A stretch of 34,088 bases of DNA from Bacillota bacterium (GCA_009780625.1 WQZR01000002.1:1-34088); one strand, 5' to 3'. Shown: positions 3,472 through 32,927, counted from the first letter of the stretch. Translations and numbers: made by a program. The notes: a model not told the origin generated them from the sequence alone.

Positions 3472-3500
3472 TTGAAATATAGATTTTTAGTGTGTATAAT
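3472..3500 (+). promoter_or_regulatory. sigma-A type promoter TTGAAA-17-TATAAT, 6 nt before ATG 3507
   Basis: TTGAAA 3472-3477, 17-nt spacer, TATAAT 3495-3500, then 6 nt and ATG. There is no space for an SD. Confidence 0.65.
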
Positions 3501-3506
3501 TTATAC

Positions 3507-4052
3507 ATGACAGAAAAGTGCAGAAAGGTTCAGTTAGAAATACAAGCACTGATTGAGAAGGCTAAAAAAGATGGTTCTTTTAATGCAACCTTTTTTGTTT
3601 TAAACCCTAGAAATAGAATAGATAAACTTAAAAGAGCAAGGGGCTATGTTTCTTTGACTGTAAGCACAGAAAAACGAAGCACATATATTTCGGAAATGTA
3701 TATTAGAAAGAAAGAACAAGGGCAAGCACTAGGCAGCAAACTTATGCACCTTGCTGCATGCTTTGCAAGAAAACATCGCTCTGGAACTTTGCTTGCACAA
3801 ATAAGTTGTGATGGAACAGAAGAAGATATTGAAAGAAGAAGAAACTTTTTTATAAGAGAAAAGTTTGCCACCGATAAAAGTAAAGTCAGCAGCTATGCAA
3901 TAAGAAATATTTGCGGTGTTTCTGAAGACAGGTTTGATGAACTCGGCGTGAAATATTTAGACGCAAGCCTTTGTGAGTTTGTTAAGTCTATTTGCGATGA
4001 AATAAAAGACGATGCACTTGGCAGAAAATCTGAGACGGGTCTTGAAATCTAG
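3507..4052 (+). CDS. GNAT-like acetyltransferase paralogue 1 (likely leaderless)
   Basis: MYIRKKEQGQALGSKLMH fits the GNAT motif A (Q/R-x-x-G-x-G/A). The GTG 3492 start in the track lies inside the -10 box, so ATG 3507 is preferred. Paralogous to the next gene. Confidence 0.6.
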   Translation: MTEKCRKVQLEIQALIEKAKKDGSFNATFFVLNPRNRIDKLKRARGYVSLTVSTEKRSTYISEMYIRKKEQGQALGSKLMHLAACFARKHRSGTLLAQISCDGTEEDIERRRNFFIREKFATDKSKVSSYAIRNICGVSEDRFDELGVKYLDASLCEFVKSICDEIKDDALGRKSETGLEI

Positions 4053-4070
4053 AGTTTAAATGTGTATAAT
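4042..4070 (+). promoter_or_regulatory. duplicated sigma-A type promoter TTGAAA-17-TATAAT, 6 nt before ATG 4077
   Basis: Same geometry as 3472-3500. The -35 lies inside the last codons of the upstream paralogue. Confidence 0.65.
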
Positions 4071-4076
4071 TTAAAC

Positions 4077-4646
4077 ATGGACAAAAAGTGCGAAACACTT
4101 GAAGTTAAACTTTTGGGGTTGATTAAAGAAATCAAAAAGACTCGTTCTTTTGTTGCAACGTTTTTGATTATAGATTCTAAACAAACAGACAAGATTGAAA
4201 AAATTAGAAGTGCAATTGCATATATCAGAGTTCATAACTACACCACTCCAGAAAAGACGGCTCACGTTTCAACACTATATGTAAGAAGAAACTTTCAAAG
4301 CGAAGGTCTTGGTGGGAAGCTTTTGGAGATTGGAATGTGCTATGCAAGAAAAAGAAAATGCGAAAAAGTGACTGCACAACTAAGTGCATTTGGAAAAATT
4401 AAGAGAAGAAGCAAGTTCTTCAAACGTCACGGGTTTGTTATAGACAGGAGAAACAAAGGTAACCATATAGAAAAGAACATAAAGAGAATTACTCAAAAGC
4501 AGTTTGACACATTCCCGATTGAATATTTGAAGATAGGAAGAGATGAAAAGTTTATTGACCTTATATGCGACGAGATTTCGGCAGATGCAAGAGGCGAAAT
4601 CAAGGGACCTCATAACCAAGACGTTTTCCTTAGATGGCTAGAATAG
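4077..4646 (+). CDS. GNAT-like acetyltransferase paralogue 2 (likely leaderless)
   Basis: LYVRRNFQSEGLGGKLLE is GNAT motif A. It is collinear with paralogue 1 (M-x-x-KC...L-I-K-E/K..SF.ATF, ICDEI..DA.G). Confidence 0.6.
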   Translation: MDKKCETLEVKLLGLIKEIKKTRSFVATFLIIDSKQTDKIEKIRSAIAYIRVHNYTTPEKTAHVSTLYVRRNFQSEGLGGKLLEIGMCYARKRKCEKVTAQLSAFGKIKRRSKFFKRHGFVIDRRNKGNHIEKNIKRITQKQFDTFPIEYLKIGRDEKFIDLICDEISADARGEIKGPHNQDVFLRWLE

Positions 4647-4672
4647 AGATTTTTCAAAAATCTCTTTTTTTA
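4645..4672 (+). terminator. intrinsic terminator
   Basis: agagatttt / aaaatctct hairpin followed by a T7 run. Confidence 0.65.
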
Positions 4673-4689
4673 TTTATGGGTGTAAAAAT

Positions 4690-4714
4690 TTCGACAACAT
4701 ATTGTTGCTAGACT
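4690..4714 (+). promoter_or_regulatory. spoIIA promoter region: Spo0A-box-like TTCGACA plus extended -10 TGcTAGACT
   Basis: TTCGACA (complement TGTCGAA) at 4690-4696 sits where a -35 would be. TGcTAGACT is at 4706-4714, followed by 6 nt and ATG 4721. Confidence 0.45.
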
Positions 4715-4720
4715 TACGCT

Positions 4721-5029
4721 ATGCAAATGTTTCATAAAAAAGTTAAAGATGTTTTGGAAATTTATTTGGTTGGTGAGCTTGATGAACACGCCAGCCATTA
4801 TATAAGACCCAAACTGGATGCGCTTATTGAAAGCGAAAGTTTTTCTAAAATGGTTATTGATTTTAGGGAACTCTTTTTTATGGACAGCACAGGGGTGGGT
4901 GTTCTTATTGGAAGATATAAGAAACTAAGCCAAAGGCAGATTCCGCTTTTTCTTAAAAACCCAAGTGCACAAATAGATAGAATTTTTAGGATGAGCGGAT
5001 TATATAAAATCATGCCCCTAACTGTGTAA
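4721..5029 (+). CDS. spoIIAA: anti-sigma-F factor antagonist SpoIIAA (STAS domain)
   Basis: VGELDEH..., FMDSTGVGVLIGRYKK (phosphorylatable Ser context) and MSGLYKI match SpoIIAA. Gene order is AA-AB-sigF. Confidence 0.9.
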   Translation: MQMFHKKVKDVLEIYLVGELDEHASHYIRPKLDALIESESFSKMVIDFRELFFMDSTGVGVLIGRYKKLSQRQIPLFLKNPSAQIDRIFRMSGLYKIMPLTV

Positions 5030-5038
5030 GGAGAATAT

Positions 5039-31900: not shown

Positions 31901-32121
31901 TAGTAAAATACACAAATGGGAAACTGCATATAAACAAAGAAACAACAATAGCGGGAATACCACAGAATGTTTGGAACTACTTTATTGGCGGTTATCAAGT
32001 TTTAGATAAATGGTTTAAATCTCATAAGGGCGAGGAACTTGACATCGGTAAATTCAACCACATTCAAAAAGTCGTTGGAATACTTGCCGAAACAATTAAA
32101 CTGCAAGATGTATTGAGATAG
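28978..32121 (+). CDS. MmeI-like type IIL/IIG restriction-modification enzyme (nuclease + N6-adenine methyltransferase + specificity domain)
   Basis: N-terminal D...EVK (GENIDIKIW...AAIEVKK) PD-ExK nuclease. YYTPYQVVRYMV; motif I DPACGTGTF; motif IV NPPY (IGNPPYLA). The C-terminal IGGYQVLDKWFKSHKG is typical of the MmeI/type ISP C-terminal domain. Confidence 0.85.
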   Translation: MLERVSDEQLRKAVIKYFNAVKERSAKNTETSYNRPIIELVELFGCKPVDFSGERSGIAGENIDIKIWRADEDLNKTEPFAAIEVKKIGGIDERARSQIKTEASRYGNVILTDNTEWRFYGADGKMYNGFELIKKDGTELKLDEEKIELFIQSIKSFVLADPVNIRSSGKLAEYMATYARDIRVIINGILQTDSSKPMFNELFALYSRLKQELLPELNIEEFADMYAQTIVYGLFIARYNDKDLKTFTLGEAIANLSQESHLLKQFFQHITTSSNIHPTLKNVVEKLCKLFSISNLPELLDECSKKDTIIHFYEDFLSYYDMAKRKAFGAYYTPYQVVRYMVSMVDEILVNEFKVNGGLSNNETTNITVKCDEYQFKKNDWRKEKEISVPQVAILDPACGTGTFGAEIIKFIKEKYFSGGNSAFYKKWIQDKNGLLSRLIGFEIMMTSYVVAHLKIRRTIAETLGEQPDEILPSNIFLTNTLAEPKSLIEKNQQQSFFDFSGAITEEAENADKWKSRRPIKVIIGNPPYLAASKNPFDITAYKTETDGVTDFKERKHWLNDDYVKFIRFAEQRIEKDGSGILAFISNNGYLDNQTFRGMRASLLRTFDKIFILDLHGNAVKKETAPDGSKDENVFDIQQGVGIIIGIKTTRNKDWAKVYHADLFGTRENKFSALDKKNIVFKKLDIDTKMAYFIPQNETGKDTYEDGVNISELFLTNVTGVMSGNNDISLASTEKELRKRIDIVNNALNEEPIQKLWGSFSRGQTADKIQKDLLDKEGKITPIAFRPFEDKWTYYSGTSCGWLLWAREKKTMGQLVHSSTSPIGKNIAFIYGRAAHISNDFAMVFVSDKIIDKGLLDVVHQAYISPLYNAPSGLEKEWTPNFNKEQLDKLTQNLKNKPTPIEIFDYCYGVLYDPTYREKYNEFLKRDFPRVPVIENEKTFDKYKNIGKLLRELHLMQTEAKFNLVITGTNLKIDLVKYTNGKLHINKETTIAGIPQNVWNYFIGGYQVLDKWFKSHKGEELDIGKFNHIQKVVGILAETIKLQDVLR

Positions 32122-32125
32122 AAAA

Positions 32126-32157
32126 AAAGCAACAGATTAACTGTTGCTTTCTTTTTT
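32126..32157. terminator. bidirectional intrinsic terminator
   Basis: aaagcaacag-attaa-ctgttgcttt, flanked by A7 upstream and T6 downstream. Confidence 0.75.
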
Positions 32158-32290
32158 CAAGAACCACCCTCTTTCGTCTCGCTGTGCGATGTGAGAATAG
32201 TTTATGAATGGTTTCTGTTGTCGTTCGACCACCAGCACTGGCACTCCTTTGAAGAAGAAATAGCCAACGGTGTTCAAACGCCAACACACT

Positions 32291-32367
32291 TGGTTGCGGG
32301 GGCAGGATTTGAACCTGCGACCTCCAGATTATGAGCCTGGCGAGCTGCCGAGCTACTCCACCCCGCG
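32291..32367 (-). tRNA. initiator tRNA-fMet (anticodon CAT)
   Basis: The reverse complement CGCGGGGTGGAGTAGCTCGGCAGCTCGCCAGGCTCATAATCTGGAGGTCGCAGGTTCAAATCCTGCCCCCGCAACCA folds as a 77-nt cloverleaf. It has the C1xA72 mismatch, A11:U24, anticodon loop CUCAUAA, T loop TTCAAAT and an encoded CCA. Confidence 0.92.
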
Positions 32368-32391
32368 ATGTGTATTCTTTGCAGATTATTA

Positions 32392-32420
32392 AGTATATGC
32401 TTATTTGATTAATTTGTCAA
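32392..32420 (-). promoter_or_regulatory. sigma-A promoter TTGACA-17-TATACT for the tRNA gene
   Basis: The minus strand reads TTGACA (32420-32415), a 17-nt spacer, then TATACT (32397-32392), about 24 nt upstream of tRNA position 1. Confidence 0.65.
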
Positions 32421-32426
32421 CCGATA

Positions 32427-32435
32427 TGGTAAAAT
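32427..32435 (+). promoter_or_regulatory. extended -10 promoter TGgTAAAAT, 6 nt before ATG 32442
   Basis: TGg + TAAAAT, then actatc, then ATG. No SD. Confidence 0.55.
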
Positions 32436-32441
32436 ACTATC

Positions 32442-32927
32442 ATGTCAAAAGAAATAGAAAGAGTGTTTTTGCTCGCTAAAAATGTAGATATAAAAAGTAT
32501 TATTGTGGGTGCTGAAAAGCAAGTGCAAACCACTGCATATTTAAACGAACCTGGTCTAAAAATGCGTCGTGTGAGAGTTGAAAACGGCGTGTATGTTTAT
32601 TGCGAAAAGGTGTATGACTTAGACAGCCCAACAACAAGAGACGAAAACGAAAGAGCATCTTGCCAAGAAGAGTTTGATGAACTGATTATGGAAGGTGCAA
32701 CATATATTCATAACGCGAGATATTTTGTGAAAATAGGAAAAGGTTTGGTTGCTGAGGTTGATGTGTTTGAAGATAACCTAAGTGGAAATGGTTTTGTTAA
32801 AATCGACGTTGAATTTAAAGCACAAAAAGAAAGCGACGCCTTCGTTCCGCCAAGCTGGTTTGGAAAAGAAATAACCGGAACGCCAAGTGAAAGACACAGA
32901 GAAGCACATTTAAAAGGACAGAAATAG
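32442..32927 (+). CDS. CYTH-domain protein (triphosphate tunnel metalloenzyme)
   Basis: The N-terminal EIERVFLL corresponds to the ExExK-type CYTH signature. Size and beta-rich pattern fit. Confidence 0.65.
   Translation: MSKEIERVFLLAKNVDIKSIIVGAEKQVQTTAYLNEPGLKMRRVRVENGVYVYCEKVYDLDSPTTRDENERASCQEEFDELIMEGATYIHNARYFVKIGKGLVAEVDVFEDNLSGNGFVKIDVEFKAQKESDAFVPPSWFGKEITGTPSERHREAHLKGQK

Follow-up and report, generated by a model that had tools for sequence, protein, structure and literature searches.

Firmicutes, and spore-formers among them especially, are the textbook case of strict dependence on the Shine-Dalgarno (SD) sequence. A 34,088-nt stretch of DNA from a member of this phylum (Bacillota bacterium, GCA_009780625.1 WQZR01000002.1:1-34088; hereafter the window, whose first letter is position 1) raises the question whether many of its genes are instead transcribed from the start codon itself, as leaderless mRNAs. 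The original prediction had listed 11 ATG codons with a -10 hexamer ending 5-8 nt upstream. All 11 pairs were found with this spacing; two more sites in the window, at 516 and 1832, and two in the 9.5 kb upstream of it brought the number to 15. We consider it probable, from sequence analysis, that at most of these sites transcripts with leaders of 0-3 nt arise and are translated from a 5′-terminal AUG without SD pairing.

The window is 99.88% identical, without gaps, to positions 10118-44205 of a 51,787-nt ENA contig (ERZ27257297:k141_2991813; 37% GC), referred to below as the parent contig. The sequence was found in termite-gut DNA metagenomes only, and the window represents part of an uncultured bacterium's chromosome. 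The sites are given below; N is followed by d, the number of nucleotides between the last T of the -10 hexamer and the A of the ATG, and scores are those of a generic promoter scanner.

502-518, plus strand: TGcTAGAAT (hexamer 505-510), N5, ATG 516; M24 peptidase gene 516-1661 (Pfam Peptidase_M24); promoter inside the 3′ end of the preceding gene; absent from the original prediction
1797-1834, plus strand: TTGAAA 1797-1802, 17 nt, TAGAAT 1820-1825, N6, ATG 1832; gene for a 143-aa protein, 1832-2263; scanner 10/12; absent from the original prediction
3472-3509, plus strand: TTGAAA 3472-3477, 17 nt, TATAAT 3495-3500, N6, ATG 3507; GNAT paralogue 1, 3507-4052 (Pfam GNAT); scanner 11/12, top match
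4042-4079, plus strand: TTGAAA 4042-4047, 17 nt, TATAAT 4065-4070, N6, ATG 4077; GNAT paralogue 2, 4077-4646; -35 box in the last codons of paralogue 1
4690-4723, plus strand: TGcTAGACT 4706-4714, N6, ATG 4721; spoIIAA; 4/6 matches to TATAAT, TAnnnT core and TGn kept; weakest site of the list
9747-9786, plus strand: TTGACT 9747-9752, 17 nt, TATACT 9770-9775, N8, ATG 9784; cysteine desulfurase NifS/IscS gene 9784-10920; expected leader about 2 nt
10925-10942, plus strand: TGcTAAAAT, N6, ATG 10940; short-chain dehydrogenase (SDR) gene 10940-11614, in the 19-nt gap after nifS
13926-13942, plus strand: TGgTATAAT, N5, ATG 13940; gene for a 203-aa protein of unassigned function, 13940-14551; promoter inside the 3′ end of a penicillin-binding protein (PBP) gene (stop at 13958)
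14541-14578, plus strand: TTGATT 14541-14546, 16 nt, CATAAT 14563-14568, N7, ATG 14576; gene for a 69-aa membrane-like protein, 14576-14785
14850-14867, plus strand: TGtTATAAT, N6, ATG 14865; thiI 14865-16073, preceded by a GC-rich hairpin at 14812-14833
17728-17745, minus strand: TGcTATAAT 17745-17737, N6, ATG 17730; FGase-like gene 17056-17730; hairpin 17751-17770 and T-run directly upstream
17973-17990, plus strand: TGaTATAAT, N6, ATG 17988; gene for a 115-aa protein, 17988-18335; terminator-like hairpin 17945-17967 with a T-run ending 5 nt before the TG
32427-32444, plus strand: TGgTAAAAT, N6, ATG 32442; gene for a 161-aa protein, 32442-32927, divergent from the tRNA gene 32294-32367 (minus strand); identical in strains L004 and L005
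9.5 kb upstream of the window: TTGACA-17-TAAAAT-N9-ATG and TTGATT-17-TATACT-N6-ATG; the two out-of-sample sites

Spacing between -10 boxes and start codons

A -10 hexamer was called good when it had at least five of six matches to TATAAT, including A2 and T6, and a start was called leaderless-type when such a hexamer stood at d = 5-9. Among the 47 independently called genes of the parent contig, 14 starts had this arrangement, compared with 41 of 1570 ATGs that are not gene starts (2.6%; p = 1e-11). When a TGn extension was also required, the counts were 7/47 and 2/1570 (0.13%; p = 3e-13). The distances formed a single sharp peak, with nine genes at d = 6, two at d = 5 and one each at d = 7, 8 and 9; adjacent 5-nt distance bins held two to five genes each. 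The spoIIAA box, with four matches, falls short of the strict criterion and is not among the 14; the ten other hexamers of the original list are good ones, as had been claimed for all 11.

TATAAT-like hexamers might simply fall near ATGs in AT-rich intergenic DNA. Background hexamers are common on a contig of 37% GC, which holds 588 other good -10 boxes, and the 2.6% of other ATGs with a box at d = 5-9 show that the arrangement does arise by accident. That frequency, however, predicts 1.2 genes and not 14. Shuffling the 40 nt upstream of each gene, a stricter null in which local AT-richness is kept, gave 3.26 ± 1.71 genes and at most 10 in 2000 shuffles; with TGn required, 0.18 genes were expected and seven observed. 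Nor does chance account for a sharp peak at one distance, for the complementarity of promoter elements described below (p = 3e-11) or for the lack of such a peak in GC-matched loci of other Clostridia. These results effectively refute chance, to which we give almost no weight, and confirm that the -10/ATG geometry is real and far beyond chance expectation.

The boxes and SD sequences excluded each other. With an SD defined as a match of at least 4 nt to AAGGAGGTGA within -20 to -4, none of the 14 leaderless-type genes had one, and 28 other genes did, mostly AAGGAG or AGGAGG. Conversely, a box at d = 5-9 occurred in 0/28 genes with an SD and in 14 of the 19 genes without one (Fisher p = 3e-8). 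The distance distribution and the SD-less fraction (19/47), both proposed as checks in the original prediction, were thus obtained for the 51-kb contig, and showed the enrichment with its peak at d = 6. The 9.5 kb upstream of the window lay outside the original sample; of its 12 gene starts, 10 had a strong SD and two were leaderless-type.

Promoter elements and start codons

All 14 boxes carry either TGn (seven sites) or a TTGACA-like -35 hexamer at a spacing of 16-18 nt (seven sites), and never both. One or the other accompanies only 17.7% of the 588 other good hexamers on the contig (p = 3e-11). Mutual substitution of TGn and the -35 element is a property of sigma-70/sigma-A promoters and has no role in a translational signal; the boxes therefore behave as real sigma-A promoters. 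The generic promoter scanner ranked 3472-3500 and 4042-4070 at the top (11/12 matches) and also reported 1797-1825 and 9747-9775; its total number of matches equalled the shuffle expectation.

Since 6 nt usually separate the -10 hexamer from +1, a site with d = 6 has its expected +1 at the A of the start codon, which is the case for 9 of the 14 sites. At 17973 and 17745 only a few nucleotides separate the box from a terminator-like hairpin with a T-run upstream of it. These hairpins leave no room for another promoter, and the transcripts of the 17988 and 17730 genes must therefore start within the last ~20 nt before the ATG.

The same arrangement could result if start codons were mis-called, the true starts lying downstream and the boxes being ordinary short-leader promoters. 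All 15 sites have an ATG, a weak discriminator since most SD-led genes on the contig use ATG too. An in-frame stop lies 9-27 nt upstream of the ATG in 10 of the 11 originally listed sites, so that the ATG is in effect the earliest start available; thiI, with its stop at -114, has a TTG at -105 as the sole alternative. The independent gene caller of the public collection picked the same ATG at all 11 sites on the parent contig. In four genes Pfam anchors residues 2-7: position 1 of the Aminotran_5, adh_short and ThiI_fer profiles corresponds to residue 2 of NifS, 3 of SDR and 4 of ThiI, respectively, and position 6 of STAS to residue 7 of SpoIIAA. The starts at 13940, 14576, 17730, 17988 and 32442 and those of the two GNAT genes, for which no family model covers the N-terminus, follow from open reading frame (ORF) logic alone and leave some room for this explanation. 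Nearby downstream in-frame starts with a convincing SD were nevertheless absent (those flagged were weak, of GGGTG type, or far downstream), and mis-calling leaves the fixed 6-nt distance between box and ATG unexplained. We regard it as highly improbable. The original prediction had also held that the ATG best fits the family N-terminus for thiI, the SDR gene and both GNAT genes. Pfam bears this out for the first two; in the GNAT proteins the Pfam match begins only at residues 43-47, and it is the nearby upstream stop that places their starts.

A further alternative is SD-independent translation of leadered mRNAs, in which transcripts start further upstream, the A/T-rich box acts as an unstructured or S1-type enhancer or the gene is translated by coupling, and the -10 boxes are incidental or secondary. 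At 516, 10940 and 13940 the site lies in, or directly behind, a gene of the same orientation, where read-through is likely, and these three genes may be translated additionally, or even chiefly, from read-through mRNAs; to that extent they count against leaderless initiation. A clear case of coupling is present nearby, at the PBP gene (11937), and A/U-rich initiation without SD has been discussed for other phyla (PMC5397173). An enhancer, however, would need no TG fixed at -15/-14 and no TTGACA-like hexamer 17 nt upstream, and would give no reason for one to replace the other. Terminator-like hairpins directly before two of the boxes, and the use of SD sequences by operon-internal genes on the contig, also argue against leadered translation, which we judge unlikely as a general explanation.

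Several other features accompany individual sites. The tandem GNAT paralogues (3469-4646) have in common a promoter-start block of ~40 nt, GGTCTTGAAATnTAGAnTTTnAnTGTGTATAATTTAnACATG, and an MxxKC N-terminus. A scan for other occurrences of the block gave no match, and a search of 5.8 billion protein sequences for GNAT homologues returned only the same protein itself. The divergent leaderless-type genes at 17730 and 17988 are separated by a GC-rich segment of ~175 nt (17771-17944), flanked by the hairpin and T-run elements at 17751-17770 and 17945-17967 and containing a TATAAT (17903-17908) 7 nt before a 6-codon ATG ORF. This segment had no Rfam match, and its fold z-scores (-1.2 to -1.4) were no better than those of shuffles. 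Assignment of the 32442 protein to CYTH, suggested by the likeness of its N-terminal EIER motif to CYTH proteins, was dropped for want of Pfam or NCBIfam support even at relaxed E-values.

Other Clostridia, published systems and a proposed dual mode of initiation

The comparison set consisted of 80 loci centred on thiI, taken from the reference genomes of other Clostridia (~1.2 Mb), and a single ORF-based classifier that does not depend on the gene caller was used throughout. On the focal contig it classed 12 of 51 long ORFs (23.5%) as leaderless-type and one at control spacing. In the 80 loci 24 of 899 ORFs (2.7%) were leaderless-type, compared with 17 (1.9%) at control spacing, which is background (p = 7e-8 versus the focal contig). 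Fifteen GC-matched loci (<40% GC, 237 kb) showed no d = 6 peak (6/182, versus 9/44 for the focal contig; p = 4e-4). The thiI gene itself was SD-led in 65 of 82 other Clostridia loci and leaderless-type in none.

Individual exceptions occur. In four otherwise SD-led loci, L089, L090, L012 and L078, the start of the nifS/iscS gene that precedes thiI is leaderless or nearly so in its geometry; two of them read as follows.

L089, 150-220: TTGACT-17-TAACCT-N6-ATG, nifS
L090, 1250-1310: TGaTATAAT-N11-ATG, nifS

In locus L076, from the uncultured Clostridia metagenome-assembled genome (MAG) E03__bin344 (28.5% GC), 4 of 18 ORFs were leaderless-type; this may be a second leaderless-rich lineage. Locus L088, which holds the nearest AckA relative, seemed to be syntenic with the window and proved not to be on inspection.

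The arrangement resembles that of GeneMarkS-2 group C, in which a Pribnow box lies 6-8 nt upstream of first-gene starts that lack an SD and the remaining genes have one (PMC6028130). This group comprises 90% of Actinobacteria, 97% of Deinococcus-Thermus and 36 of 1064 Firmicutes (3.4%); in its genomes, of which Mycobacterium tuberculosis and Deinococcus deserti are examples, 25-50% of operons are predicted to be leaderless (PMC6028130). The focal contig shares with it -10 boxes localised near starts, absence of SD at those starts and SD elsewhere, with ~30% of genes involved and a peak at 6 nt. It differs in its GC content (37%), in having a full TGnTATAAT or a -35/-10 pair where high-GC groups have a degenerate TAnnnT, and in belonging to a sporulating, Clostridia-like taxon; moreover, one contig is here set against whole genomes.

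Of the 209 Firmicutes genomes in Zheng et al. (2011), 56 had leaderless genes (mean 4.2%, maximum 16.6%), which were concentrated in Lactobacillales and Mycoplasma and carried a TGnTAtAAT signal; a text search of that paper for Clostridia found no mention (PMC3160421). Its Lactococcus/Streptococcus and Oenococcus/Leuconostoc cases are likewise low-GC Firmicutes, with TAtAAT at about -10 from the start and a TG peak able to replace the -35 element (PMC3160421). Those are non-sporulating Bacilli, whereas the contig with ~30% leaderless-type genes comes from an endospore-former with spoIIA and spoVA. In Clostridia whose transcription start sites (TSS) have been mapped, leaderless transcripts are rare: in solventogenic clostridia they make up 2-3% of transcripts (PMC9045289), in C. 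phytofermentans ~4% of TSS, for the most part alongside a further, upstream TSS and a ribosome-binding site (PMC5171806), and in C. difficile they were found for 15 genes (PMC7438776). These species are also endospore-forming and low in GC, and their sigma-A promoters with frequent TGn, short 5′ untranslated regions (UTRs) and strong SD sequences correspond to the leadered half of the contig; the ~30% of leaderless-type genes is what sets it apart. The claim that such a density is atypical for spore-forming Firmicutes stands when measured by the 2-4% of TSS-mapped Clostridia, but its novelty had been put too strongly, given the precedents in group C Firmicutes and Lactobacillales. The mechanism is already known and a few Firmicutes have been computationally predicted to be rich in leaderless genes; the novelty lies in the taxon and in the density reached within a sporulating, Clostridia-like lineage.

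We propose that sigma-A-type promoters, with either an extended -10 (TGnTATAAT) or a -35/17/-10 arrangement, start transcription on the A of the ATG or 1-3 nt before it. The resulting mRNAs would have neither 5′ UTR nor SD and, by the established mechanism for leaderless mRNAs, a ribosome carrying initiator tRNA would bind the 5′-terminal AUG directly. Such a mode would serve ~30% of contig genes and ~40% of core genes, and would coexist with an SD-led mode used by operon-internal genes, genes with 20-35-nt leaders and a horizontally acquired defence island; the genome would then belong to group C. The leaderless interpretation of the original prediction is supported by spacing, SD exclusion, TGn/-35 complementarity, hairpins, ATGs, Pfam N-termini and the out-of-sample sites. 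The geometry, its statistics, the promoter elements, the start codons and the contrast with other Clostridia are observations; the transcription start positions, the translation mechanism and the genome-wide extent are what we infer.

Besides read-through at three sites, several observations count against this proposal. Leaderless-type and SD-led genes were indistinguishable in the folding energy of their 5′ ends (p = 0.75), the spoIIAA box is weak, and all four genes of L088, the locus with the closest AckA (54% identity), are SD-led. No relative close enough for footprinting emerged when reference genomes and JGI metagenomes were scanned with single proteins, so that conservation of the geometry has no comparison; the DNA runs that hold the sequence contain near-identical strains only. 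Between the window and the parent contig there are 40 single-nucleotide differences, none in promoter elements, but only 0.4 were expected there, so this test is powerless. Run searches found no RNA runs holding the sequence and thus no direct evidence on 5′ ends. Finally, the sample is 51 kb, and the genome-wide extent is an extrapolation from it.

The last point bears on a further alternative, that the sites are real leaderless promoters in a region that happens to be rich in them, the genome at large being SD-dominated with a few per cent of leaderless genes. The lower rate in the 9.5 kb upstream (2/12) fits this, as do the occasional leaderless-type genes such as nifS in SD-led Clostridia and the 2-4% of the TSS maps (PMC9045289, PMC5171806). 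However, the 14 genes, a mixture of housekeeping, sporulation and unknown ones, have no function in common and are spread over 38 kb, and a genomic rate of 3% would give 1.4 of 47 genes, making 14 very unlikely. We consider a merely local feature rather unlikely. The broadest form of the leaderless proposal is that a deep-branching, uncultured lineage of endospore-forming Bacillota from termite gut has shifted genome-wide to dual initiation, with at least about a third of native genes leaderless, developmental genes included, and horizontally acquired islands SD-led. This we put forward tentatively, as somewhat less likely than not. If true, the leaderless genes would include spoIIAA, transcribed from an extended -10 promoter with a Spo0A box, and possibly spoVAD, with a promoter for a forespore sigma factor. 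It would also mean an independent origin, inside Clostridia, of an expression architecture of actinobacterial and Deinococcus type, and it predicts that the translation apparatus has changed accordingly (IF2/IF3 balance, bS1, anti-SD).

A share of ~30% leaderless-type genes in a sporulating lineage would show that heavy leaderless use arose or persisted inside Clostridia. In MAGs of this kind SD-tuned gene callers can mis-place starts, and the split between leaderless native genes and SD-led islands would be a simple marker of foreign DNA. Compact promoter-plus-ATG modules (38 nt for -35, -10 and ATG) could be used as minimal cassettes for expression in Gram-positive hosts.

Possible sporulation promoters, SD-led genes and source lineage

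An exact Spo0A-box heptamer, TTCGACA, occupies 4690-4696, the usual place of a -35 box, 12 nt before the -10 box of spoIIAA. Its position would fit a Spo0A-activated spoIIAA promoter; we keep this as a hint, as such heptamers are not enriched on the contig (nine found, six expected). The spoVAD gene (7758) has neither SD nor sigma-A box, and possibly has a leaderless start from a promoter of an alternative forespore sigma factor (G/F) ending 6 nt before the ATG. The sequence before it, GAATA-N16-CAATAAA-N6-ATG, was read by eye as sigma-G/F-like; its fit to the consensus is imperfect and it was not counted as a site. Strains differ by indels in A/T runs at 7665-7689, within the spoVAD upstream region (7589-7760).

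Leaderless-type and SD-led starts coexist in the window, and the contrast drawn in the original prediction was correct: spoIIAB, sigF, spoVAE, spoVAC and the island genes are SD-led. A promoter of TGnTATAAT type lies 22-38 nt upstream of the SD-led ackA, 17007 (minus strand), 18864 (minus strand), 28829 (minus strand) and 28978 genes. The same promoter type thus has two placements, one giving a short SD leader and the other none. The contrast case is ackA.

2267-2304, plus strand: TGcTATACT, ~25-nt leader with AAGGA, ATG 2302; ackA, short-leader SD-led use of the same promoter type

Other genes without SD have different arrangements. The stop of a small SD-led ORF (11783-11932; 49 aa, hydrophobic) precedes the ATG of the PBP gene (11937) by 5 nt, and upstream of this ORF lie a TATAAT (11649-11654) and then a strong hairpin (11664-11686); this is probably an upstream-ORF or translational-coupling arrangement. 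The 21100 gene overlaps the gene upstream of it, and both it and the PBP gene are likely to be translationally coupled. The Fic gene lacks an SD at its called start and has an alternative SD-led start at 18994.

The defence island (18376-32121) is low in GC (0.31-0.34) and adjoins the tRNA gene 32294-32367 (minus strand). Its genes include the following.

18925-19902: Fic/SoFic-like protein
22199-23491: C5 DNA methylase, followed by HATPase_c_3, Z1/helicase-like and DUF4420 genes
28098-28829, minus strand: RCR Rep-like gene
28978-32121: Type IIG restriction-methylase, 1047 aa

All island genes are SD-led or translationally coupled. None of 11 island genes was leaderless-type, compared with 14 of 36 core genes (p = 0.02), a contrast that fits a foreign origin of the island.

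The remaining gene content bears on the source. STAS, HATPase_c_2 and Sigma70_r2/r4 domains in order at 4721-6198 identify the spoIIAA-spoIIAB-sigF operon (Pfam), and SpoVAD (E = 3.6e-132) and two SpoVAC_SpoVAEB genes follow at 7758-9739; both endospore-former markers, the spoIIA operon and the spoVA genes, are therefore present. Besides these, ackA, nifS and thiI, the window carries genes for a class A PBP and an M24 peptidase, the two tandem GNAT genes and several genes without known function. In the database of 5.8 billion proteins, the nearest non-self ThiI and AckA were 46% and 54% identical. The best reference-genome matches by ThiI were uncultured Clostridia MAGs at 35-43% (Ca. Coproplasma, Ca. 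Scatosoma, Christensenellaceae, Oscillospiraceae). These low identities, with Clostridia MAGs as best genome matches, indicate that the source is a sporulating, Clostridia-like, phylogenetically isolated Bacillota lineage from termite gut.

At the end of the window, a giant SD-led ORF of 2729 to 3007 aa starts at 33484 (33484-34088; L003 10555-18741; L004 2480-11503); it has no Pfam match on record, and in strain L004 it is followed by gyrB. JGI contig L005 diverges downstream of window position 33343, which suggests structural variation between strains.

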